Source: Candidatus Levybacteria bacterium RIFCSPLOWO2_12_FULL_41_12 (GTDB taxonomy: Bacteria; Patescibacteriota; Microgenomatia; Levybacterales; UBA12049). Taken from it: a stretch of DNA of 64,000 nucleotides. The stretch covers positions 34,012 through 98,011 of the forward strand of contig MFPL01000002.1 of the NCBI GenBank assembly GCA_001784155.1, written 5' to 3'. Both the position numbers and the translations under genes were made by a program. The notes beneath the pieces were generated by a model. The model was not told the origin of the DNA and made no database searches. It saw only the letters and a list, made by a program, of their open reading frames with translations. Below, in pieces: positions 2,726-34,590 of this stretch. Numbering within the stretch: the stretch's first letter is position 1; each line of letters begins with the position of its first letter.

Positions 2726-2800
2726 AGCCCCCGTCGTCTAGCGGTTTAGGACACCTGGTTCTCATCCAGGAGATCACCGGTTCAAATCCGGTCGGGGGTA
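2726..2800 (+). tRNA. tRNA-Glu (anticodon CTC)
   Basis: Cloverleaf read directly. Acceptor stem GCCCCCG/CGGGGGT. Anticodon stem CCTGG/CCAGG with loop TTCTCAT (U33, CTC, A37). T-arm CCGGTTCAAATCCGG. Discriminator A. CCA not encoded. Confidence 0.8.
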
Positions 2801-2805
2801 CAAGA

Positions 2806-19314: not shown

Positions 19315-19388
19315 TGGCTGCTGGACTAGGATTCGAACCTAGATGAATGGATTCAGAGTCCACTATCCTACCGTTAGATGATCCAGCA
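19315..19388 (-). tRNA. tRNA-Gln (anticodon CTG), CCA encoded
   Basis: Minus-strand cloverleaf. Acceptor TGCTGGA/TCCAGCA (U1:A72 as in bacterial tRNA-Gln). D-stem ATCT/GGAT. Anticodon stem GTGGA/TCCAT with loop CTCTGAA (CTG). T-arm CTAGGTTCGAATCCTAG. Discriminator G plus CCA. Confidence 0.8.
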
Positions 19389-21534: not shown

Positions 21535-22941
21535 TCAAAAGCGGGACTTTAGGTTTTCAAGAATTTGCTCTCTTCCATCAATTTTTACCATTGTTTCAAT
21601 TAGGGGGAGACCTTGTTCGCGTCCAGTTATCAGAAAATAGATTTCTTTCATAGAAACATTTTCCGTATTTTTGAAATTTTTCAAAACATTAAGAATTCTC
21701 TCTTCCCTCCAATCGCTGTGCTCAATGTTAGAAAGCGTATTGAAAAGCTTTTCCGCGATTTTCATCTCAGCTGTGGTTAAGTCTCTTGCAGAAGCATTGT
21801 TAAAGGCCAGGTTTTTAAAGTCCGACAGTTTTTTCATCCTGCTTTGAGAAAGACCAATTAAAAGATCTATGTGTGAGCTCTTAAACATTTCAAGAGTTTC
21901 TTTATCGTTCTTGTAAAAATCTAATAGTCTTTTTTTAAGCTCAGTTAGGGGAAATTTTCGGATCCATACGCCGTTAAGCCATTCAAGCTTTGTTAAATCA
22001 AATACCGGTCCAACCGGCTTTAAGTCTTTTGGATCAAAAAGTTTTGTAAATTCAGATAGGTAAAATTCCTCTTTTCCTTCGGGATGGCTCCATCCCATAA
22101 GAGCCAAGAAATTTAAAATTGCTTCGGGAAGAAAACCCTCCTGTCTATACCAGTCGATTGAAGCATGGCCATGCCTTTTTGATAGTTTTGATTTGTCAGT
22201 ATTTCGAAGATTCGGTGTGTGATAAAAATAGGGTTTTTCCCAACCGAAATAATCGTAGATAAGCACGTGCTTTGGATAGGACGGGAGCCATTCTTCTCCT
22301 CTTATAACGTGCGTAATCTTCATTAAGTGATCATCGACCACTACTGCAAAATGATACGTTGGAAATCCGTCTGTTTTTATTAGAACCGAATCCTCAATAA
22401 GAGATGCGTCAAACTCAACGTCTCCTCTTATCTCATCTCTCACTACTAAATTTCCCTCTTGCGGAACTTTAAGCCGCAAAACATAAGGTTCGCTCTCGTT
22501 TTTAGCGATTTCTTCTTCATTCAGTTTTCGGCATAGTTCGTCATAGATCGTCGGCTGTTTTGATGCAGCCTGACTAGATCTGAGCGCATCAAGCCTTTCC
22601 TTGGTACAAAAACATTTATATGCTCCGCCTTTTTCTAAAAGATCCTTTTCGTATTCTCTGTATATAGAAAGTCTCTCAGATTGCCTGTATGGACCCCAGT
22701 CTCCTCCTTTTCGCGGGCTTTCGTTTTCGGAGAGGGAAACCCAGTCTATTGCTTCGAAGATTTTTCCTTCAGCTCCTTCAACAAATCTTTCACGATCAGT
22801 GTCTTCTATCCGAACAAGAAATTTTCCATCATTTTTTTTAGCAAAAGCGAAGTTAAAAAGCGCTTGATAAAGTGTGCCTATATGCGGGCTTCCGGTCGGA
22901 GACGGGGCAATTCGAGTCCTCACCAAATTACTTCCAGCCAT
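21535..22941 (-). CDS. gltX: Glutamate--tRNA ligase
   Basis: Class I HIGH (SPHIGT) and KMSKS (KLSKRHG) motifs with the GluRS catalytic-core pattern. Confidence 0.95.
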   Translation of the reverse strand: MAGSNLVRTRIAPSPTGSPHIGTLYQALFNFAFAKKNDGKFLVRIEDTDRERFVEGAEGKIFEAIDWVSLSENESPRKGGDWGPYRQSERLSIYREYEKDLLEKGGAYKCFCTKERLDALRSSQAASKQPTIYDELCRKLNEEEIAKNESEPYVLRLKVPQEGNLVVRDEIRGDVEFDASLIEDSVLIKTDGFPTYHFAVVVDDHLMKITHVIRGEEWLPSYPKHVLIYDYFGWEKPYFYHTPNLRNTDKSKLSKRHGHASIDWYRQEGFLPEAILNFLALMGWSHPEGKEEFYLSEFTKLFDPKDLKPVGPVFDLTKLEWLNGVWIRKFPLTELKKRLLDFYKNDKETLEMFKSSHIDLLIGLSQSRMKKLSDFKNLAFNNASARDLTTAEMKIAEKLFNTLSNIEHSDWREERILNVLKNFKNTENVSMKEIYFLITGREQGLPLIETMVKIDGREQILENLKSRF

Positions 22942-22979
22942 ACTTGCATTGTAGCCAAAAAAGAACCTATACTCAAGGT

Positions 22980-24011
22980 ATGCTGACTTTGAGCAAGCTC
23001 AAATACGATTTAAAATCAATTCTTCGAATTTTATCACTGATAATTGGAGTGGTCATTTTTATCTTTGTTCTTTTTAAAATAGGCTCTTTTGTAAAAGAAG
23101 TGATCTCCCCAACGCCCCCAGCTTCGCCCGATGTTAAGTTCGGCATATTGCCCGAACTCGCGTTCCCAAAAAGTGTAACCGGGAAAATTCCTACTTACAG
23201 AATCGACACCTTATCCGGAAGGTTACCCACTTTTTACCACTTGGCAAAAGTTTACACGATGGAAAGGCCAAAAGCAGATCTCCTGGCGCTTGACAGGGCA
23301 AACAACAGGGCTAAGGCTATAGGATTTAACAAGCCGGGAAGAAAAACTGCCGACAAACTGTATGAATGGAAGAACGATGCCGGAAGAACATTTAGCCTTA
23401 ACCTTCTGACATCTGACTTTTTGCTTAAATCAGACTTATCAACGGACTCAGCAGGGTTCATCGATGAATCTTCTGAGACTGAAGCAATAAATAAGGCGAC
23501 GAGCTTTTTGAACAATCTAGACTTACTTCGGGACGATATAGATACCGAAAAAACAACTACATATTTATATTCTTTTAAAAACGAATCTCTTGTTGACGCA
23601 ACAAGCCTATCAAATACCCAGGCAATTAAAGTCTATTTTTTTCAAAAGGATGTTGAGGATCTACCCGTTTATTATCCAGATGGCCGCTCGACAATGTCTG
23701 TTCTTATAACTAGCGACAAAAGAAGGATGGATATTTCTGGTGCAGAGTTTTTCTATCAGACCCCAGACCTTAACAGAAAAACAACGTATTCGATAAAAAC
23801 GAGCACAGAGGCATTTGAAGAATTGAAAAAAGGAAAAGCCTACATTGCAAGCCATAACCCGCTGGACTTAGAAATATTAATTAAAAATCTCTATCTAGGC
23901 TACTACATAGGGCAGGAAAAACAGGATTATTTAATGCCCATTTACGTTTTTGAGGGCAACAATTTCCTAGCTTATGTCTCAGCGATCAGGGATGAATGGA
24001 TAAGTAATTAA
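22980..24011 (+). CDS. Membrane-anchored extracytoplasmic hypothetical protein
   Basis: ATG 22980 is 6 nt downstream of TATACT. N-terminal TM helix then a ~310-aa Ser/Thr/Asp-rich domain with no recognised motif. Confidence 0.5.
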   Translation: MLTLSKLKYDLKSILRILSLIIGVVIFIFVLFKIGSFVKEVISPTPPASPDVKFGILPELAFPKSVTGKIPTYRIDTLSGRLPTFYHLAKVYTMERPKADLLALDRANNRAKAIGFNKPGRKTADKLYEWKNDAGRTFSLNLLTSDFLLKSDLSTDSAGFIDESSETEAINKATSFLNNLDLLRDDIDTEKTTTYLYSFKNESLVDATSLSNTQAIKVYFFQKDVEDLPVYYPDGRSTMSVLITSDKRRMDISGAEFFYQTPDLNRKTTYSIKTSTEAFEELKKGKAYIASHNPLDLEILIKNLYLGYYIGQEKQDYLMPIYVFEGNNFLAYVSAIRDEWISN

Positions 24012-24924
24012 TTTTTTCAAGACTCCTGAGTAAAACTTCTGTATCATAAAACCTATCCTCGCTTTGCATAACTACAAGAATCAAAGACTGCGGGCCTTGG
24101 GACGACTCTAAGGTCTTTGAAGTTACGAGAATTTGTCCTGCCTCCTCTGTATAACCAGTTTTTATTCCATTTATACCCCCTAAATCTAAAAGCCTATTGA
24201 GATTTCTTAAGACGTGCAGGTTGGTTTTGTCAGCGTCCTCAATCAATTTGTCCCTCGTACCTACCACTCTCGCAAATAGCTCATTTCCCATAGCATTAGA
24301 CGCAAGAAGCGCCAAGTCGCGAGTGCTTGTGTAATTTTTCGTATCCAGAAGTCCCACCGGTTCTTCGTAATGTGTGTTTTTAAGAGACAAGAAGTAAGCC
24401 TTCTCATTCATTTTTTCAACAAATGCTTTTTCTCCACCGGGATAATTATCTGCGATAACGGAGGCTGCGTCGTTACTTGAAGGAAGCATCATTGCATAAA
24501 GCATGTCCACAAACCGAACGCGCTCTCCTCTTTTAAAATCTACTACGTCATCTCTCTGTGAATCTTTATTGACAAGCAAAATGTCATCTTCTTTGTAATA
24601 ATCTATGCCCACAAGTGCTGTCATAATTTTTGTTGTGGATGCCGGAGCAAATCTTAGATCCGGGTTCTTGGAAAATATAACCACTTTTGAATTTCTGTCC
24701 ATAACGGTAACTCCCTTGGCTGAAAGACTTGGAAAAGAGTTAATATCAAGAGCCGGATACTCCTTCACAGAATATTCTAGCGGAGAAGGTAATATCTCAT
24801 ATTTATTTACCTGAAGTTTTGCAATAACATCTAGCGAAAACAAAATAGCCAAAACAACAAACAGCAAAAGCGGTACTAGCGCTAAGGAAAATTTATTTCT
24901 TCGACTTTTTTGAGAACCGTTCAT
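23986..24924 (-). CDS. D-alanyl-D-alanine carboxypeptidase (serine-type, PBP5/S11 family)
   Basis: SxxK (ASTTK), SxN (SSND) and KTG (KTGYT) motifs with an N-terminal signal/TM. Confidence 0.85.
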   Translation of the reverse strand: MNGSQKSRRNKFSLALVPLLLFVVLAILFSLDVIAKLQVNKYEILPSPLEYSVKEYPALDINSFPSLSAKGVTVMDRNSKVVIFSKNPDLRFAPASTTKIMTALVGIDYYKEDDILLVNKDSQRDDVVDFKRGERVRFVDMLYAMMLPSSNDAASVIADNYPGGEKAFVEKMNEKAYFLSLKNTHYEEPVGLLDTKNYTSTRDLALLASNAMGNELFARVVGTRDKLIEDADKTNLHVLRNLNRLLDLGGINGIKTGYTEEAGQILVTSKTLESSQGPQSLILVVMQSEDRFYDTEVLLRSLEKINYLSIHP

Positions 24925-26363
24925 TAAGAAGAGACCTTATCATCCGAAATAACTTTAATCCCCAATTCCTTGAGAATATTCTCTGGGACACTTGCTGGAG
25001 CATCCATTACCGAAGTTCTGCCACTTGAGGTCATTGGAAAAGCCATAGTTTCTTTAATCGATAGCTCTCCTTTTAGGAGCGCTATGTGCCGATCGATACC
25101 CAGGGCAATTCCACCATGTGGTGGAGCACCAAATGAGAATGCTTCAAGCATGTGCCCAACGCTTTCTTCAATTTGAGAGTCTGAATACCCCATAATTTTA
25201 TACGTAGCCTTTAAAAGCTCAGGGGTATGGGCTCTAATACTTCCGCCGCCCGCTTCGAGTCCGTTACAGACCAGATCATATTGCGTAGTAAGAATTTCCC
25301 CAATATTTTTCCCCGCAAGAAGTCTTTCAACATGCTCGGGTATTGGCATACTGAATGGATTATGGGTAAAAGTCCATTCACTTTTGCTATCAAATTTGTC
25401 TGATATTTCCTCCTTATTTACCGGTCTAAAAAATGGAAAGTCCGTAACCCAGGCAAAAGCTAAAACTCCGTTCTTTTTCTCTGCCTCTGTCCGCAGGTCA
25501 AACTTGTCTGCTCCATATTTATCCATTGCCGCGCGATACGAGACAACAGGAAAAGTCTCATCTTTTAACTTTCCCCCTACAGCCTTAACCCCTTCTTTTA
25601 CCACCTCTTCAACTGCCTGCATTACTTCCTCTCTTGTAACAAAACTCATTTCTAAATCTAGCTGAGTATGCTCAAATCCTCTATCCGCTCTTAGATCTTC
25701 GTCTCTTAGACAATGTGGAAACTGAAAATATCGTTCAAACCCTGCCACCATTAAAAGCTGCTTGTACTGCTGAGGGCTTTGGGGAAGAGCGTAAAATTTG
25801 CCCGGCTGAAAGCGCGAAGGGACGATAAAGTCTCGCGCTCCTTCCATGGTGGTTTTTGTAAGAAGCGGCGTCTCTATTTCAACAAAATCTTTTTTTATCA
25901 GCGCCTGACGCAATGCCTGCATGTAATCGCTTCTAAGCCGGAGATTCTCTTGCATTCTCTTGCGTCTTAGGTCTAGGTACCTGTATCTAAGACGAACTTC
26001 TTCTCCTATTTCTAGTCCATCTGTAGTCAAATCAAAAGGCGGGGTTTCGGACCGGCTTAGAATATTTAGGCTCTTTACTTCAATTTCAACTGTGCCTGTT
26101 GGAATATCTTTGTTAATATTCTTCTCAGGACGCTTATTGACCTTACCTGCAATTTCCACTACGAATTCCGGCCTTATTGCTTGCGCAACTTCATAAGCGG
26201 CTGGCGAAGTCTGGGGAATAACAACAGCCTGAACAATTCCGCTTCTATCTCTTATATCTAGAAAAACCAACTTACCATGATCTCTCCTAACCTCTACCCA
26301 ACCCTTAAGCATTACATCTTCGCCGGCTTTACTAGCCGTATCCTTAATGAGCGTTCTTTGCAT
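24924..26363 (-). CDS. aspS: Aspartate--tRNA ligase, short archaeal/eukaryal-like form lacking the GAD insertion
   Basis: N-terminal OB fold. Class II motif 2 FRDEDLRADRGFEHTQLDLEMSF and motif 3 GGIALGIDR. At 479 aa it is too short for a bacterial GAD-containing AspRS. Confidence 0.88.
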   Translation of the reverse strand: MQRTLIKDTASKAGEDVMLKGWVEVRRDHGKLVFLDIRDRSGIVQAVVIPQTSPAAYEVAQAIRPEFVVEIAGKVNKRPEKNINKDIPTGTVEIEVKSLNILSRSETPPFDLTTDGLEIGEEVRLRYRYLDLRRKRMQENLRLRSDYMQALRQALIKKDFVEIETPLLTKTTMEGARDFIVPSRFQPGKFYALPQSPQQYKQLLMVAGFERYFQFPHCLRDEDLRADRGFEHTQLDLEMSFVTREEVMQAVEEVVKEGVKAVGGKLKDETFPVVSYRAAMDKYGADKFDLRTEAEKKNGVLAFAWVTDFPFFRPVNKEEISDKFDSKSEWTFTHNPFSMPIPEHVERLLAGKNIGEILTTQYDLVCNGLEAGGGSIRAHTPELLKATYKIMGYSDSQIEESVGHMLEAFSFGAPPHGGIALGIDRHIALLKGELSIKETMAFPMTSSGRTSVMDAPASVPENILKELGIKVISDDKVSS

Positions 26364-26444
26364 AGGTATATTGTATTATTTTGCATTTTTATAGACAAGC
26401 CTCAATTGACTAACTACTATAAGATGTGGTAAAATCCCCCTACT

Positions 26445-27893
26445 ATGCCAAGACAAGAAGCGCCTCAACCCATAACGAGAGATAGTAGAGATCGAAAGAG
26501 AGTAGGGACTTTCATACCAAAAGAAGGATTAGCTGGGTATGGGGGAAATTTTGATTTACTTGATCAAAATGGACACTTCAGAATTCCAGAACCTCCTTTC
26601 ACAAGCCAGCAAAGAAGAGAATGGCGTACATCTCTTACCATAGGTGAACAAATTGAATTTAACACACTAAGATCTAATGTGTTGGAATTATTCGGTGTGG
26701 ACAGCTTACCCCAAATAAGAGATGTCATGGCAGACCCACAAAGAAAAGCTGAGAGAACTATTGAAGCTAATAGAATTATTGCTAAAAGATTTGGTATTCG
26801 GGGAAGCGATGAGTTTATAAGAGCACAAATAAGTGAATATTACAAAACAGCTGTTAGAGAAAGAAAAGAGGAAGCGCGAAAACTTGGCATAGTATCAACT
26901 TTCGAATTATCGAATGCTGTTGCTCTAACCTCCAATGTATTAGAGCTAGCCAATTTAGCATTTTTTAGTCCAAAAAAAAGAATAAGATTTGAAGCAGGGA
27001 AAATACTTGATGGCATGGATGCGGTAGCTGCAGCAGATAGCGTAAGGCGAGAAGAGGAAACAACTAGATTTCTTGCATCTCCAAATACTTCCTCATCGCA
27101 TGTTGACGAAGAAGGTAAAGAAGTAGATCCAGATGTTTCTGAAATAAATGCTATCCTAGACGGCCATTTTTATAGCTCAGCGCCTCCCGAAGAGCCTGCG
27201 CTCTTCAAAAGTAGGCATGCTAAAGATGATTTTAGGACTTTGGAAATAATTAGAATTCCTCCAAAACAAGCAAGGATTGCGAGATTTAAAGATCCAGGAG
27301 GCATGCAGCTTTGGACCGATATTCCTGAAAGGGTGATAATACATGACGGCGTGGAAACGCTTGCATATGCAACAGTAAGGAAAAAATCACCAGAGTCAAC
27401 TACGAGAAAAGCCAGAAGAAAAGGTACTAGAAATATCAGAAAAGCCGTAGAGGATACTATCGCAATGCGTGTAATAGTTCAGAATAAAGCAGATATCCCA
27501 GTGGTTCACGAAAAACTGGTACAAGCTTTCGCTGATGCTGGACACTCCTTTACTCTTCTTGAGCTTCAAGACTCGTTGTCAGGGGGAACATATGCCATAA
27601 GAAATCCTGGGAGCTCTGAGAATCTAGAGGTTGTAAATATTATGGCTAAAGTAGGACCTTGGATAGCTGAGATTCAATACACTGATTACTTTGGATGGAT
27701 TGATTCAACTACTAGACGTGGAGTCGCACGTGCAGATTTTGAATTAAATAGACTTTATGAAAGTGGAGTTCCTCAGCATGATTTTCCAGAATGGATATAC
27801 AAATTACCTCACGATAAAATAAGAGAAAAGAGAGAAAGAGAAATAAGAGCAGGAATCGCTAATGGTCTTTTCCGCGATGAATTAGATCTTTAA
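26445..27893 (+). CDS. Two-domain protein: unknown N-terminal domain plus C-terminal RelA/SpoT-homolog (small alarmone synthetase-like) nucleotidyltransferase domain
   Basis: Residues ~315-420 align by eye to RelQ/SAS motifs: ESTTRKARRKG (cf. SILEKARRK), VEDTIAMRVIV (cf. MQDIAGLRIM), ADIPVV (cf. DDIQIV), IAEIQYTDYFGW (cf. VEIQIRTLAMNFW). No searches run. Confidence 0.55.
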   Translation: MPRQEAPQPITRDSRDRKRVGTFIPKEGLAGYGGNFDLLDQNGHFRIPEPPFTSQQRREWRTSLTIGEQIEFNTLRSNVLELFGVDSLPQIRDVMADPQRKAERTIEANRIIAKRFGIRGSDEFIRAQISEYYKTAVRERKEEARKLGIVSTFELSNAVALTSNVLELANLAFFSPKKRIRFEAGKILDGMDAVAAADSVRREEETTRFLASPNTSSSHVDEEGKEVDPDVSEINAILDGHFYSSAPPEEPALFKSRHAKDDFRTLEIIRIPPKQARIARFKDPGGMQLWTDIPERVIIHDGVETLAYATVRKKSPESTTRKARRKGTRNIRKAVEDTIAMRVIVQNKADIPVVHEKLVQAFADAGHSFTLLELQDSLSGGTYAIRNPGSSENLEVVNIMAKVGPWIAEIQYTDYFGWIDSTTRRGVARADFELNRLYESGVPQHDFPEWIYKLPHDKIREKREREIRAGIANGLFRDELDL

Positions 27894-29562
27894 TTCTGAG
27901 CTCTATTTTTTTGTTTCCGTTCCATTCATTAAGAACAAGCGAATAAGCGATATCTACGGTATCTCCGATTTTAATCCCTCTTAATTTTTCCACCCCATTA
28001 AAATACATTGCTTCGATAGAAAACTCTCCATCAGAGCAGACAATTTTTATGTGTCTTTGGTCCGCTCCAACAATTCTAAGATCGTAAATATTTAAACCCC
28101 GGCTTACGAAAACAGGCGTTGGATTCCCCATACCAAAAGGCTCAAGCTTTGACAGAGAGTCGTAAACTTCAATGTTCAAACTTCTAAGTGGTATCTCACA
28201 ATCAATCCTAAGTTTTCTTTTAAGAAGCTCTTCTGTTAACATTTCTTCGGCAAACTTCTGGAACTTTTTTTCAAGTGCGGTAAGATTTTCTGTCTTAACC
28301 GTAAAGCCGGCAGCCATGGGATGACCCCCTGCGTCCACCAGAAGATCCGAAGCCTTCCTTATAAATTCTATGATATTAAAGCCCGATACAGACCTCGCCG
28401 ATGCGCGACTTATTTCTTTTCCTTTTGAGACAACAATTGAAGGCAGAAAATATTCTTCGGTAAGTCTCCCTGCTACAAGTCCTATAATTCCCTGCTCGTA
28501 TGAATCGTGCTTAACGAACAATAGCTTTTTTGAATTTCCTTTCACTCGAGATTTAGCATGCATAAATGTATCTATGGTTAGTTTCTGACGACTTCTGTTA
28601 GTGTCGCCTAATTTAATTGCCAAAAGTCTTGCCCTCTTCGGATCGGTCGTACACAAAAGCCTCAAGCTATCCATCGCATTTTCAAGTCTTCCCATCGCAT
28701 TGAGTCTCGGTGCGATAACGTGCCCTATCGTATATACGGATATTTCCTCTTTTTTTATTCCTGCTTCTTCAAAAAGCGCAAGGAGTCCCGGCCGCATACT
28801 TTCTCTTAAATTTTTCAGTCCGAAATAAAGAAGACTTCTATTTGCTTGAGTCAGGGGAACTAAGTCTGCAACCGTAGCCAATGCTACGAGCTCCAAATGA
28901 GAGTCATTGGAAATTGAAAATTGCTCGCCCCGCGAAGCTTGGGCGAAGCGAGGAAAATTGGAAATTGCTCGCGAGAGCATATAGGCCACTCCGGCGCCAC
29001 AAAGACTAGTGGTATGAACAATCGAGTAAGCGTCTGGAAGAGCGCTTGATGGAACATGGTGGTCGGTAATTATTACGTCTATTCCCCTCTCTTTTGCAAA
29101 AAATACAGCATCATTTGCTACTATGCCATTATCTACGGTTATGATAAGAGCGGGCCTACCAAGCGTCTTTTCTAAATCTTCAATTCCCTTAACGGACAGA
29201 CCGTATCCCTCTTCAATTCTGTTGGGAATATACGGCATAACGTCTGCTCCTGCGTCGCGAAGCGACTCCCAAAGAATAGCTGTTCCAGCAATTCCATCTA
29301 CATCGTAGTCTCCATAGACGACAATCTTCTCCTTACTAGCTATGGCCTTTCTTATTCTTTCGACTGATTTGTTAAGCTCCTTCATGTTAATTCCTACACT
29401 TTTGGCAGAAATTTTTTTAAGATTTGGGTTAAGAAAATCAGAAGTATCGTTCTTTGAAATTTTTCTATTTTTTAAAAGAAGATCTATTAATTTGTCTGCC
29501 TCCAGATTCTTTTTTATTTTAAGCGAACCTAGGATTTCCCAGTTCGTGAGGGTTGTTTTCAT
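27859..29562 (-). CDS. recJ: Single-stranded-DNA-specific exonuclease RecJ
   Basis: DHH motifs (DYDVDGI, DHH), DHHA1 domain, C-terminal OB fold. Confidence 0.9.
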   Translation of the reverse strand: MKTTLTNWEILGSLKIKKNLEADKLIDLLLKNRKISKNDTSDFLNPNLKKISAKSVGINMKELNKSVERIRKAIASKEKIVVYGDYDVDGIAGTAILWESLRDAGADVMPYIPNRIEEGYGLSVKGIEDLEKTLGRPALIITVDNGIVANDAVFFAKERGIDVIITDHHVPSSALPDAYSIVHTTSLCGAGVAYMLSRAISNFPRFAQASRGEQFSISNDSHLELVALATVADLVPLTQANRSLLYFGLKNLRESMRPGLLALFEEAGIKKEEISVYTIGHVIAPRLNAMGRLENAMDSLRLLCTTDPKRARLLAIKLGDTNRSRQKLTIDTFMHAKSRVKGNSKKLLFVKHDSYEQGIIGLVAGRLTEEYFLPSIVVSKGKEISRASARSVSGFNIIEFIRKASDLLVDAGGHPMAAGFTVKTENLTALEKKFQKFAEEMLTEELLKRKLRIDCEIPLRSLNIEVYDSLSKLEPFGMGNPTPVFVSRGLNIYDLRIVGADQRHIKIVCSDGEFSIEAMYFNGVEKLRGIKIGDTVDIAYSLVLNEWNGNKKIELRIKDLIHRGKDH

Positions 29563-29593
29563 TTTGCTATACTATAGCAGAGAAGAATATTTT

Positions 29594-30997
29594 ATGGAAA
29601 GCATAATTAACAAAATCCCCAAGGTCGTTTTGTCAGCTTACAATACTCTTAAAGACAAAGGCTATAAGGTTTACCTCGTGGGAGGCGGCGTAAGAAATCT
29701 ACTCATGGATATTCCGGTTAAAGACTGGGATCTCTCGACAAATGCTACCCCGGACGAAATTACGACACTTTTCAAAGATTCATACTACAACAATCTCTTT
29801 GGAACGGTGGGTCTGCCCGTAGATATAAACGGCACGAAATCAGTTATAGAAATTACTACCTTCAGAAGCGAGGGTGAATATAAAGACAGGAGACGACCCG
29901 AAAGCGTTGAGTGGGGAAAGACAATTGAAGACGATCTTTCTAGACGTGACTTTACGATAAACGCGATTGCCCTTCGCTTTGCTCCCTTCGACGGTTCTCA
30001 GGACAAGCAGGATAAACCCTCTGAAGTTGAATTCGCTGATCCGTTTAATGGTAGGGTGGATATAAAAAACAAATTGATAAAAGCAGTCGGCGATCCAAAG
30101 AAGAGGTTTAAAGAAGATGCTCTGCGCCTTATGAGGGCAGTAAGAATTGCAACACAGCTCTCCTTTACAATAGACGATGCCACTTGGAAAGAAATTCAAA
30201 ATGATGCGAAGCTGATAAGAGATATCTCGGGAGAAAGAATAAGAGATGAACTCTTAAAGATTCTTGGATCCGAAAACTCATACGAGGGAACAATAATGCT
30301 TAAAGATTCAGGGCTACTTGAAGAAATAATTCCTGAGCTCTTGGAGGGAGAAGGAATTTCGCAAGCAAGACCAGGTAGGCATCACACCGAAGACGTACTC
30401 ACTCATAATCTTTTGTCTCTTAAACATTCTCCCACAAAGAATTCTATCGTTCGCCTAGCCGCTCTTCTTCATGATGTCGGGAAACCAAAAGCGCTAGGGA
30501 AAGATGAAGAAGGACTCGTTACTTTTTACAACCACGAAGTCGCAGGAGCAAAAATTGTTAAAGAAATTGCACAGCGCCTTAGGCTCTCCAAGAAGGAAAC
30601 AGAAAGAATTGTGACTTTGGTCCGCTGGCATATGTTTACGGTTGACGAGAAAATAACAGATGCAGCAGTACGCAGATTTATAAGAAGAATTGGCGTTGAA
30701 AATGTTACCGACATGATGGATCTTCGAATTGGTGATCGACTTGGCGGGGGAACCCAGACGGCAGAATCTTGGCGACTAAAACTATTTAAAAAAAGGGTGG
30801 AAAAAGAACTATCACCCAAACCGTTTTCTATCGAGGACATGGCGATTGACGGAAATGATGTTATGAAAGAACTTGGAATAAAACCGGGTCGTAGGATAGG
30901 AGAAATTCTACAAGCTCTTTTTGAAGAAGTCGACGAGGATCTATCGAAAAACACTAAAGAGCACTTACTCCAAAGAATAAAAGATTTGGGGAAATAG
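29594..30997 (+). CDS. cca: CCA-adding tRNA nucleotidyltransferase with C-terminal HD domain
   Basis: Start at ATG 29594 (MESIINK...). Head domain GGGVRNLLMDIPVKDWDL. HD motif HDVGKP. The listed 29342 start would overlap recJ and is rejected. Confidence 0.9.
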   Translation: MESIINKIPKVVLSAYNTLKDKGYKVYLVGGGVRNLLMDIPVKDWDLSTNATPDEITTLFKDSYYNNLFGTVGLPVDINGTKSVIEITTFRSEGEYKDRRRPESVEWGKTIEDDLSRRDFTINAIALRFAPFDGSQDKQDKPSEVEFADPFNGRVDIKNKLIKAVGDPKKRFKEDALRLMRAVRIATQLSFTIDDATWKEIQNDAKLIRDISGERIRDELLKILGSENSYEGTIMLKDSGLLEEIIPELLEGEGISQARPGRHHTEDVLTHNLLSLKHSPTKNSIVRLAALLHDVGKPKALGKDEEGLVTFYNHEVAGAKIVKEIAQRLRLSKKETERIVTLVRWHMFTVDEKITDAAVRRFIRRIGVENVTDMMDLRIGDRLGGGTQTAESWRLKLFKKRVEKELSPKPFSIEDMAIDGNDVMKELGIKPGRRIGEILQALFEEVDEDLSKNTKEHLLQRIKDLGK

Positions 30998-31009
30998 TAT
31001 AATTAATAT

Positions 31010-31462
31010 ATGGATAAAAATAAACTTCAGGAAGAATTAAAGAAATCGATGCTGGCAAGAGATGAGCTGAGAACGTCAGTTCTGCGCCTTCTTCTTTCTG
31101 CAATTAATTACTACGAAATTCAAAAGGGCGGAGCAGGATATGTGGCGACCGAAGAAGATGTCTTGTCTGTAATACAAAAAGAGGCAAAGCAAAGACGAGA
31201 CTCTATCACAGAGTACGAAAAAGCAGAAAGACAAGATTTAGCTGATAAGGAAAAGAAGGAGCTTGAAATATTGCAAACGTTTCTACCAGAACAAATGCCA
31301 GAGGATAAGATTCAAAAGATTGTTGAGCAAACTATAAGTGAAATAGGAGCAGTCTCGATTCAGGATATGGGAAAGGTCATGGGCGAGCTAAACGGCAAAC
31401 TTAAAGGCAAAGCAGATATGGGAATGATCTCAAATCTCGTCCGTCAAAAACTTGCCTTATGA
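31010..31462 (+). CDS. yqeY: GatB/YqeY-domain protein
   Basis: ELKKSMLARDELRTSVLRLLLSAINYYEIQKG pattern. TATAAT-6-ATG promoter. Confidence 0.8.
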   Translation: MDKNKLQEELKKSMLARDELRTSVLRLLLSAINYYEIQKGGAGYVATEEDVLSVIQKEAKQRRDSITEYEKAERQDLADKEKKELEILQTFLPEQMPEDKIQKIVEQTISEIGAVSIQDMGKVMGELNGKLKGKADMGMISNLVRQKLAL

Positions 31463-31872
31463 CAATACAGAGACCAGAAGCAGGAATCGGCGTAATAATA
31501 CTAAAGAATAAAAAGGTTTTACTCCTAAAAAGGGAGGGTATTGCCGGGGATGGTACTTGGTGTTTTCCCGGAGGGCACATAGAGTTAAACGAATCATTTG
31601 AAGAGGCAGCTAAAAGAGAAACAATAGAGGAGTCAGGGATACAAATAAAGAATGTTAGTGTCGTAGCAGTGACTAATGATATTCTTAAAACAGATAATAA
31701 ACATTACGTTACGGTCTTTGTAATTTCTGATTATGATTCTGGCGAAGAAAAATTGATGGAACCAAATAAATCCAGCGAGATAAAATGGTTTGATTGGGAC
31801 AGATTGCCTAAACCGCTTTTTCTTCCAATTGAAAATTTATTAAAACAAAACTTTAACCCTTTTTCTTTGTAA
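31459..31872 (+). CDS. NUDIX hydrolase
   Basis: Nudix box GGHIELNESFEEAAKRETIEESGI. Confidence 0.85.
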   Translation: MTIQRPEAGIGVIILKNKKVLLLKREGIAGDGTWCFPGGHIELNESFEEAAKRETIEESGIQIKNVSVVAVTNDILKTDNKHYVTVFVISDYDSGEEKLMEPNKSSEIKWFDWDRLPKPLFLPIENLLKQNFNPFSL

Positions 31873-33270: not shown

Positions 33271-34590
33271 TTATTCTTTGTACAAAATCCTCATAAAACT
33301 TCTAGTTACGATAATTGCTGAAAACATTGATACTACGACGCCAATTATGAGTACTACTGCAAAACCTCTGACTATACCGGTTCCAAAATAGATGAGGATC
33401 ATACTTGTAATTATCGTTGAAACGTTTGAGTCACGAATAGAAGTCCACGCCCTCTTAAATCCCAGCTCTACAGCTTGGGACTTCGACCTTCCCATGTGAA
33501 GCTCTTCTTTAATCCTCTCAAATATCAAAACATTTGCATCAACCGCCATCCCTATTGAGAGAATAAATCCCGCTATGCCTGCAAGGGTAAGCGTTACTCC
33601 GTAAGGCGTAAGAGAGCTCAACTTAAAAACTGAAAGAACAAAAATGGTGTAAAGAAAAAGAGCAATGCTTGCCACAATACCTAGCCTTCCATATAAAGCT
33701 GTCATGAATACGACAATTGTAAAAAATCCTATAAGCCCTGCGAAAAGACTTTTTTGAAGAGACACTGCACCGAGAGTCGGGCCAATGACATGTTGTTCAA
33801 GTATGGTAAGGGATATTGGTAATGCTCCTGCATTAAGCTGGGTGCTCAAGGCTTTCGCCTCATCGCTCGTGAAAGAACCGGTTATAACTGCGTCTCCTGT
33901 AAGAATGGGTTCATTAACATTTGGAGCGGTTATTACAACGCCATCTAGAACTATTGCAACAGGCTTGCCTACATTTCTCTTGGTTATGTCCGCAAACTTT
34001 TTGGATCCTGCTTCTGTAAATCTCAGCTGCACCTGTGGCTGGCCAGTATTTTGATCAAAACCAACAGACGAAGTTTTCAAATCCCCACCAGTTAGCGTTG
34101 TCTCTTTTGGATTACCCCCGAGAATCGGAGCAAGGAGTAGTTCTGTTGCAGAACCCGATGCGATAACATCAGCAGACGCTGTTGCCTCTCCTTCCCAAAA
34201 TGTAAGTTTGGCTGTAGTTCCAATAAGCGATATTGCCTCGTTCACATTTGTTACGCCCGGAAGCTCAACTATAATCCGGCGGTCTTCCGAGGTTTTTGAA
34301 GTCTGTATTACGGGCTCTGATACGCCGAAAAGATTTACCCTTCTCTCAATAACTTCTTTCGCCGAGTCAAGCGCCTTATCCCGGTCAGACGTAATAATAC
34401 TATCTGTATTTGCTTTAAACGTGATATTTACTCCGCCTTTCAAATCCAATCCCTGCCGAAACTCCATTTCTTTCCCAACGCCAATCTTAGACAAAAGAGA
34501 ATTTCTTAACGAAAAATCCGGCAAAACAACGAAAAGAGCAATAACTGTGAGTACAATAATGAGAACGGAGATAATCCGAGGGTTTTTCAT
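33271..34590 (-). CDS. secD: Protein-export membrane protein SecD
   Basis: N-terminal TM helix, large periplasmic domain, C-terminal six-TM SSD-like bundle. Confidence 0.9.
   Translation of the reverse strand: MKNPRIISVLIIVLTVIALFVVLPDFSLRNSLLSKIGVGKEMEFRQGLDLKGGVNITFKANTDSIITSDRDKALDSAKEVIERRVNLFGVSEPVIQTSKTSEDRRIIVELPGVTNVNEAISLIGTTAKLTFWEGEATASADVIASGSATELLLAPILGGNPKETTLTGGDLKTSSVGFDQNTGQPQVQLRFTEAGSKKFADITKRNVGKPVAIVLDGVVITAPNVNEPILTGDAVITGSFTSDEAKALSTQLNAGALPISLTILEQHVIGPTLGAVSLQKSLFAGLIGFFTIVVFMTALYGRLGIVASIALFLYTIFVLSVFKLSSLTPYGVTLTLAGIAGFILSIGMAVDANVLIFERIKEELHMGRSKSQAVELGFKRAWTSIRDSNVSTIITSMILIYFGTGIVRGFAVVLIIGVVVSMFSAIIVTRSFMRILYKE

Follow-up and report, generated by a model that had tools for sequence, protein, structure and literature searches.

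A divergent RelA/SpoT-homologue-fold protein with an unassigned N-terminal module in a Levybacteria genome

The window studied here, 64,000 nucleotides of contig MFPL01000002.1 of Candidatus Levybacteria bacterium RIFCSPLOWO2_12_FULL_41_12 (positions 34,012 to 98,011), carries between aspS and recJ a gene for a 482-residue protein whose C-terminal half is almost certainly homologous to the RelA/SpoT homologue (RSH) synthetases. It represents an RSH subfamily of its own, which has gone largely unannotated, has a novel N-terminal module and includes NUDIX-fused relatives. Our best reading, at a probability of roughly 0.55, is that of an active, housekeeping, Mg2+-dependent ATP pyrophosphoryl-transferase of the RSH synthetase fold, for which a free nucleotide is the likely acceptor. 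The coding sequence and its synthetase core are given below in window coordinates; the open reading frame (ORF) had been proposed in a first-pass annotation of the window, and its coordinates and length are reproduced exactly.

26445..27893, plus strand: coding sequence of the RSH-like gene, ATG start, 482 amino acids, a divergent RSH-fold pyrophosphokinase-like protein
27351..27686, plus strand: RSH synthetase core, residues 303-414, beta1-alpha-beta2-alpha-beta3-loop-beta4-beta5

Fold of the C-terminal half

The Pfam RelA_SpoT profile (PF04607) matches residues 312-361 with an E-value of 7.7e-6, over profile positions 2-49 of 113. The hidden Markov model match that had been suggested as a check of this region scores 26.6 bits against a gathering score of 27, and covers half of the profile. 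RelA_SpoT is the sole recurring Pfam family among the relatives of the protein, being matched at E<0.1 by 12 of 13 close and 16 of 65 diverse members, and in some distant members the match spans profile positions 1-100. None of these 13 close and 65 diverse members reaches the Pfam cut-off. A score of 26 bits is normal between RSH subfamilies, since RelQ itself scores only ~25 bits against RelA and against CapRel. AtzH-like Pfam matches (E 0.005-0.04, in three or four members) were treated as noise.

A profile of the close family has a single significant match in the PDB, RelP/YwaC (E = 0.007). A broader profile matches RelP, RelP(Sa) and a RelQ-type small alarmone synthetase (SAS), the E-values of the PDB profile matches ranging from 0.003 to 0.007. 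With hhalign, a 65-sequence profile aligns with B. subtilis RelQ (query sequence identical to PDB 5ded) over 113 columns that begin at Syn1 and extend past Syn4 (E = 0.002), and with E. coli SpoT in the same register (E = 0.035). When RelQ was compared as a control with all 148 window ORFs of at least 80 amino acids, the top and sole match was this ORF (E = 0.007).

The AlphaFold2 model built from the 65-sequence alignment has a predicted local distance difference test score (pLDDT) of 89 and a predicted template modelling score (pTM) of 0.85. The top 32 Foldseek matches of this model are all RSH proteins, as they were for an earlier, poorer model. The predicted structure resembles RelP, RelQ and Rel more closely than it does CapRel, FaRel2 or Tas1; in structure comparison the best non-RSH nucleotidyltransferase, Pol lambda, scores 7.1, CapRel 6.6 and Tas1 5.6. 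As modelled, the RSH synthetase fold is the best structural match and is separable from other Pol-beta-type nucleotidyltransferases. The RSH fold first proposed from motifs is thus recovered by structure prediction, and a fold outside the RSH group was not seen among these top matches.

Catalytic motifs

Four motif parallels that had been drawn by eye all recur when the family profile is aligned with RelQ by hhalign. VRKKSPESTTRKARRKG aligns with GRVKPVASILEKARRKS of RelQ, EDTIAMRVIV with QDIAGLRIMC, ADIPVV with DDIQIV, and IAEIQYT with VEIQIRT. The catalytic motifs are located as follows.

27378..27422, plus strand: Syn1 motif R312-K-K314-x3-S318-x3-K322-x2-R325-K326, donor ATP phosphate binding by homology
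27453..27470, plus strand: Syn2 motif D337-T-I-A-M-R342 (D-x-x-[G/A]-x-R)
27669..27677, plus strand: Syn4 motif E409-I-Q411, equivalent to RelQ E139-I-Q141, with the catalytic Glu

Conservation was counted over up to ~140 family sequences, diverged to ~20% identity. In the hhalign register, R312, K314, S318, K322, R325 and K326 of Syn1 correspond to RelQ R46, K48, S52, K56, R59 and K60. These residues are 84-99% conserved across the family (R312 125/137, K314 136/138, K322 137/138, R325 124/138), with the exception of S318, where Ser is found in 58 and Ala in 38 of 138 sequences. In Syn2, D337 is present in every sequence (140/140), and position 340 is Gly or Ala in 131/140, with Gly alone in 127. 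By the same register D337 is equivalent to the Mg2+-coordinating Asp D72 of RelQ, whose counterpart in FaRel2 is D90; mutation of D90 abolishes activity (bioRxiv 10.1101/2021.04.30.441581). The canonical Arg of D-x-x-G-x-R (R342) is kept in the window's clade and occurs in 25 of 140 sequences family-wide. The catalytic Glu of Syn4, E409, is conserved in 134/141.

A basic residue at either position 342 or position 398 is found in 127 of 130 members. Thirteen of the 16 sequences that lack Lys or Arg at 398 have Arg or Lys at 342, and three of these are distant members outside the window's clade. This pattern is suggestive of interchangeable positions, in a set of related sequences for which the statistic is not a clean one.

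Because the ATP- and Mg2+-binding residues are near invariant in a family with so little overall identity, the active site is probably a working one, and we infer that the protein is, in good likelihood, a catalytically active pyrophosphokinase. The non-canonical acceptor motif described below, and the loss of the Syn2 Arg in most of the wider family, would be in keeping with an RSH-fold protein that has lost catalysis and acts structurally or as a regulator. However, the retention of D337, K322, K314 and E409, and of a basic residue at 342 or 398 in nearly all members, makes such a pseudoenzyme highly improbable.

Acceptor loop

27570..27638, plus strand: acceptor loop D376-S-L-S-G-G-T-Y383-A-I-R-N387-P-G389-S-S391...N398, residues 376-398

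The canonical Syn3 motif Y-x-S-x-H, with its base-stacking Tyr, is absent, and it is at this acceptor site that the family differs from every characterised RSH. The place of this G-loop is taken by a longer loop, ~20 residues in the AlphaFold2 model, with the consensus D-[TS]-L-x-G-G-x-[YFH]-x3-N-x-G-S-S. In two independent hhalign registers (RelQ and SpoT) G389 is paired with the Tyr of Y-x-S-x-H, S391 with the Ser and N393 with the His, so that the Ser alone is kept; the aromatic Y383 lies six residues upstream of the position aligned with the Tyr. The loop shows strong conservation at D376 (115/142), the aromatic position 383 (Tyr, Phe or His, 113/137), G389 (114/142), S390 (115/139) and S391 (116/141), or ~81% for each residue of G-S-S. 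G380, G381 and N387 are further signature residues. Position 398 is Lys in 121 of 141 sequences family-wide and Asn in the window's clade. The acceptor motif had been called degenerate at first sight; its canonical form is indeed gone, but the loop in its place is conserved and re-modelled rather than decayed.

These features bear on a second interpretation, in which the protein is a canonical (p)ppGpp synthetase, the ordinary stringent factor of the lineage, whose sequence has drifted in a fast-evolving reduced genome. In this case neither the chemistry nor the regulation would be new. The closest structures are those of (p)ppGpp synthetases, D-x-x-[G/A]-x-R and E-x-Q are intact in the window's clade, the gene belongs to the core set and is syntenic, and the conserved aromatic residue at 383 could take over guanine stacking. 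However, the longer loop that replaces Y-x-S-x-H is conserved in its own right, which argues for selection for a different geometry and not for drift. No RSH has a counterpart of the ~300 additional conserved residues at the N-terminus, and the family search described below returns few representatives and no canonical RSH. A drifted stringent factor is therefore considered unlikely.

N-terminal module and C-terminal helices

The synthetase core is preceded by three elements and followed by a helical region.

26526..26594, plus strand: conserved N-terminal peptide GLAGYGGNFDLLDQNGHFRIPEP, residues 28-50
26604..27170, plus strand: all-helical domain, residues 54-242, with the signature R181-F-E-A-x-[KR]-[IK]-L-x-x-M191
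27198..27344, plus strand: beta-subdomain before the synthetase core, residues 252-300, with strands 252-258, 265-271, 288-293 and 296-300 in the model
27687..27860, plus strand: C-terminal helices, residues 415-472, with conserved E431, Y/F432, R436, P448, Y452 and R468

Most of the family (77 of the full-length class) carries the N-terminal module of ~300 amino acids. No relative of these 300 residues was found in Pfam, NCBIfam, a PDB sequence search, PADLOC or PHROGs, and in an exhaustive search the N-terminal domain occurs only alongside a synthetase domain, matches to the N-terminal part alone being short fragments. The region had been described as an unassigned domain. This holds insofar as no relative is found, but the region can be divided into a peptide, a helical domain and a beta-subdomain.

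The peptide follows the pattern GNFDLLDQxGHFxIP, in which G34, F36, L38, L39, D40, Q41, G43, F45, I47 and P48 are invariant in the close family. With an identity of 0.78 within the close clade and of 0.34 among distant members, it exceeds every other region. The pLDDT is 56-82 within the peptide and mostly 88-98 beyond residue 50. In the beta-subdomain, S256 is conserved in 84/103, H258 in 94/103 and R296 in 109/120 sequences. The peptide and the helical domain would form a lineage-specific module, and the N-terminal part probably either regulates the enzyme or sets its specificity.

Two possible assignments were rejected. RelA carries an inactive hydrolase domain, and a degenerate HD hydrolase of this kind is not supported by comparison with the N-terminal part. 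The motif RFEAxRKL of the N-terminal domain gives a profile match to PDB 1puz (E = 0.49), which was treated as chance.

Family size and distribution

The protein is not the orphan that it had been taken for, as it has 13 close homologues, at identities of 51-100%; the one at 100% comes from a Candidatus Levybacteria metagenome-assembled genome (MAG), where it is annotated as a 'hypothetical protein'. A profile search of 1.84 billion protein representatives identified 153 at E<0.001, including 36 at E<1e-30, and pulled in no canonical RSH proteins. These 153 cluster representatives are mostly 430-500 amino acids long. Among GTDB species representatives, a search seeded with the close-family alignment found close homologues at just three loci, and an alignment-seeded search of proteins brought back the close clade alone. 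The 482-residue protein has no match in NCBIfam, and standard annotation mostly misses the family, leaving its members 'hypothetical'.

Three GTDB contigs (L005, L006 and L007) with homologues of 60-80% identity are titled as 'uncultured Gammaproteobacteria' or 'Alphaproteobacteria' MAGs. Both the gene family and the identical NCBI protein, however, are from Levybacteria, and mislabelling or contamination of the bins is the probable explanation.

Genomic context

24924..26363, minus strand: aspS, divergent from the RSH-like gene
26406..26435, plus strand: promoter-like element with extended -10, TTGACT-18 nt-TGgTAAAAT
27859..29562, minus strand: recJ, convergent with the RSH-like gene
27859..27893: overlap of the 3' ends of the RSH-like gene and recJ, 35 nt, convergent

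The spacer between aspS and the RSH-like gene is 81 nt long and contains the promoter-like element, which has 10/12 matches with TG in a scan for the sigma-70-type consensus. The mRNA is probably leaderless or near-leaderless, because the element ends 9 nt 5' of the ATG and no Shine-Dalgarno sequence lies between the two. The layout TTGACx-N17/18-TGnTAnAAT-N9-ATG is kept upstream of orthologues in five related loci (L001, L002, L005, L009 and L012), which lends support to the leaderless-type promoter proposed in the first-pass annotation. The start of the protein, MPR(K/Q)E, is also common to orthologues. In L004 (6001..7455, P0011) the start as called falls within the conserved -10 element (atGTTAGAAT), and translation probably begins at an ATG six codons downstream (MTARE...), in agreement with the other orthologues. 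No riboswitch or other RNA element was found in the 81-nt spacer with Rfam.

The overlap with recJ is kept in orthologues, measuring 38 nt in L001/L002, 20 nt in L004 and 4 nt in L012/L013/L016/L021. A scan of the locus found no terminator-like site or structure between the RSH-like gene and recJ, and besides the RSH-like gene there is no ORF of at least 60 amino acids in the interval from aspS to recJ.

The gene order gltX, hypothetical gene, D-Ala-D-Ala carboxypeptidase, aspS, RSH-like gene, recJ, cca, yqeY is kept in related loci. The central arrangement of aspS, the RSH-like gene, recJ and cca is found in eight loci (the window, L001, L002/L003, L004, L012, L013/L014/L015, L016/L017 and L021), and holds even where the RSH-like protein is only 24-30% identical to that of the window. 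The gene thus stands alone between aspS and recJ, as had been noted, with no partner ORF and with a fixed position. The nearness of aspS and cca had also been read as a hint of function; it says little in this respect, because the synteny is lineage-wide and without co-orientation. The RSH-like protein is 58-65% identical to that of the window in L001/L004 and 27-30% identical in L012/L013/L016, whereas recJ (51-58%) and cca (59-64%) show similar divergence across all five of these loci.

This bimodal and rapid divergence relative to the neighbouring genes is one of the features that would fit a third interpretation, a toxSAS-like (toxic SAS) pyrophosphokinase that targets translation, as do CapRel, FaRel2 and PhRel, in defence or growth arrest. 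The tRNA-related neighbours (aspS, gltX and cca) would also agree with it, as would a large extra domain fused in cis, as in CapRel, and an acceptor loop unlike that of the (p)ppGpp synthetases. The NUDIX domains fused to some relatives, some of them weakly Nudt16-like, could in principle remove a 3'-pyrophosphate. However, the gene has its own promoter and no antitoxin-sized neighbour, and its strictly fixed chromosomal position is unlike that of mobile, patchy defence genes. The protein has no match in PADLOC or PHROGs, and no close relatives were seen on IMG/VR viral contigs in a scan by short conserved patterns, which reaches close relatives only. Its isoelectric point of 7.2 (family median 6.8, RelQ 6.6) is, as a crude measure, not that of the generally basic protein that would be expected to bind tRNA. 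At the aligned position it lacks the Tyr without which FaRel2 does not modify tRNA, and the predicted structure is nearer to RelP, RelQ and Rel. A toxin-antitoxin cassette is made unlikely by the lack of a partner gene, the fixed locus and the lack of a close viral-contig relative, and the toxSAS option raised at first pass is on the whole quite improbable.

NUDIX-fused relatives

Eleven of the 20 longer relatives scanned have a C-terminal NUDIX domain above the Pfam threshold, and a twelfth falls just below it. The 482-residue protein of the window has no such domain. Between the synthetase and the NUDIX domain, the fused relatives carry a region of ~150 amino acids with a phosphoribosyltransferase (PRTase)-like VLIVDD loop, matched by Pfam in one member at 23.6 bits against 26.3. 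This region may be a nucleotide- or phosphoribosyl pyrophosphate (PRPP)-binding sensor rather than an enzyme. In P0061 (~430-600) and P0067 (466-587) the PRTase-like PRPP loop reads NVLIVDDIGRD and NVLIVDDVGEK, respectively, without the usual TG-T after the acidic pair. One of the fused genes lies on an 811-kb scaffold amid carotenoid, photolyase and pyruvate-kinase genes, and the gene content of this scaffold is unlike that of a genome of the Candidate Phyla Radiation (CPR).

Bacterial SASs are normally accompanied by a hydrolase, and the Thermus NUDIX protein Ndx8 is a known ppGpp-degrading partner of RSH synthetases (PMC3153485). The Nudix ppGpp pyrophosphatases therefore offer a precedent for a NUDIX domain as the degradative partner of a synthetase, and the fusions would point to synthesis as well as breakdown of a nucleoside-diphosphate-linked product. 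The searchable literature yielded no account of a synthetase fused to a NUDIX domain. It is tentatively suggested that the family is an unclassified RSH clade whose re-modelled acceptor pocket gives a pyrophosphorylated product other than (p)ppGpp, derived from another nucleotide or from a non-nucleotide ribosyl acceptor. It would serve housekeeping signalling in Levybacteria-like CPR bacteria under N-terminal control, and its PRTase-like and NUDIX-fused relatives, which do not look like CPR members, would be a bifunctional make-and-break enzyme.

A separate NUDIX gene is also found near the RSH-like gene.

31459..31872, plus strand: stand-alone NUDIX gene after yqeY, 3.5 kb downstream of the RSH-like gene, with the Nudix box GGHIELNESFEEAAKRETIEESG

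A stand-alone NUDIX gene also follows yqeY in L013 (11969..12412, minus strand) and L014 (7493..7936, minus strand), and is absent from this position in L001/L012/L016/L021. A Rosetta-stone link between this gene and the RSH-like gene was considered and rejected, as its similarity to the fused domains is just at the level of the Nudix box. The window and L013 copies share 35% identity over 57 amino acids and lie on opposite strands relative to yqeY, which leaves the link unsupported.

Proposed activity

By homology, R312, K314, K322, R325 and K326 of Syn1 would hold the triphosphate of the donor ATP, while D337 and E409 would serve as Mg2+ ligands and as catalysts for moving the beta,gamma-pyrophosphate onto the 3'-OH of the acceptor ribose. 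The acceptor would be bound by the family-specific loop, from D376 through the aromatic residue at 383 to N387-x-G-S-S391, probably with contributions from H258, R296, R436 and R468 of the beta-subdomain and the C-terminal helices. A free (purine) nucleotide is the most probable acceptor, which would make the protein an alarmone-type second-messenger synthetase with (p)ppGpp, (p)ppApp or another compound as candidate product. A small nucleotide is somewhat favoured over RNA in this role. The gene would be a vertically inherited housekeeping gene of Levybacteria-like Microgenomates, expressed from its own promoter. The first-pass annotation had offered a nucleotide second messenger or a toxin as alternatives; the former is the better reading and is strengthened by the NUDIX fusions, while the latter has lost ground.

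Several observations weigh against this proposal. The Pfam match lies just below the gathering threshold and covers half of the profile, and the hhalign probabilities against single sequences are low, at 13.8% for RelQ. The acceptor-stacking Tyr (RelQ Y116, FaRel2 Y128) is aligned with a conserved Gly, so that the acceptor could differ from GDP/GTP or ADP/ATP and could include RNA. In FaRel2, Y128, the equivalent of RelQ Y116, is essential (bioRxiv 10.1101/2021.04.30.441581). In some lineages the protein evolves unusually fast, with 27-30% identity where recJ has 51-57% and cca 59-64%, which is not typical of a core regulator. RNA ends are also possible targets of NUDIX domains, and a weak resemblance to Nudt16-like decapping enzymes is seen in some of the fused ones.

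Comparison with known systems

The single-domain synthetases RelQ (SAS1, YjbM; 5dec/5ded) and RelP (SAS2, YwaC; 6fgk, 6ewz) are ~200-250 amino acids long. The window protein, with 482 amino acids and its ~300 additional N-terminal residues, is not a single-domain SAS; its sequence similarity to these proteins is marginal and it has the longer D...[YFH]...N-x-G-S-S loop in place of Y-x-S-x-H. In contrast to RSHs of the long type (Rel, RelA, SpoT), it shows no hydrolase domain of the HD or pseudo-HD type ahead of the synthetase, and it ends at residue 482 after the helices 415-472, with no TGS, helical, ZFD or ACT (RRM) region detected by Pfam. The RSH synthetase fold and the catalytic Asp are shared with the toxSAS proteins CapRel, FaRel2 and PhRel2 and with Tas1 and FaRel, which make (p)ppApp. 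CapRel likewise has two domains, a regulatory one being fused in cis, and is an example of an antitoxin attached in this way. Unlike the toxSAS modules, the window gene has no adjacent antitoxin or immunity gene and no mobile, defence-island or prophage context. The family is filed as an RSH subfamily because it has the fold and the catalytic motifs and is neither a long RSH, a single-domain SAS nor a toxSAS of the toxin-antitoxin type.

CPR bacteria have minimal genomes and depend on hosts. A literature search found no paper on RSH enzymes, ppGpp or alarmone signalling in CPR/Patescibacteria, and the family is a concrete candidate for starvation sensing or signalling in these organisms. The range of RSH substrates, at first (p)ppGpp, now also takes in (p)ppApp and tRNA, and the re-modelled loop and unique N-terminal module could widen both this range and that of RSH regulation. 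The fusions of a synthetase, a PRTase-like region and a NUDIX domain suggest a second, independent construction of a bifunctional alarmone synthetase/hydrolase, which would be an analogue of Rel with a non-homologous hydrolase. Should the product turn out to be plain (p)ppGpp, what would remain is a useful, if divergent, annotation for Microgenomates.

Other observations on the locus

Two tRNA genes, tRNA-Glu(CTC) at 2727..2801 (plus strand) and tRNA-Gln(CTG) at 19315..19388 (minus strand), are the sole Rfam/ARAGORN matches in the 64 kb of the window.

An ORF of 379 amino acids (22872..24011, plus strand) lies between gltX and the D-Ala-D-Ala carboxypeptidase gene and has no Pfam match. It is found at the same position, with 39-42% identity, in L004, L012, L013 and L016. 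Its true start is probably further downstream, because the N-terminus overlaps gltX and a shorter protein would fit the orthologues of 341-349 amino acids. Similarly, the longest ORF for cca (29342..30997, plus strand, 551 amino acids) begins with ~84 low-complexity residues that overlap the 5' end of recJ. The start of cca is likely at 29594, since the Pfam PolyA_pol head begins 26 residues after this position and the orthologues are 454-469 amino acids long.

The identities of aspS and gltX (21535..22941) to their counterparts are bimodal. For aspS they are 73-81% in L001/L013/L016 and 31-34% in L004/L012, and for gltX 67-69% in L004/L012 and 39-42% in L013/L016. Among genomes that are similarly diverged, this bimodality suggests in-place replacement by another type of synthetase in some lineages.

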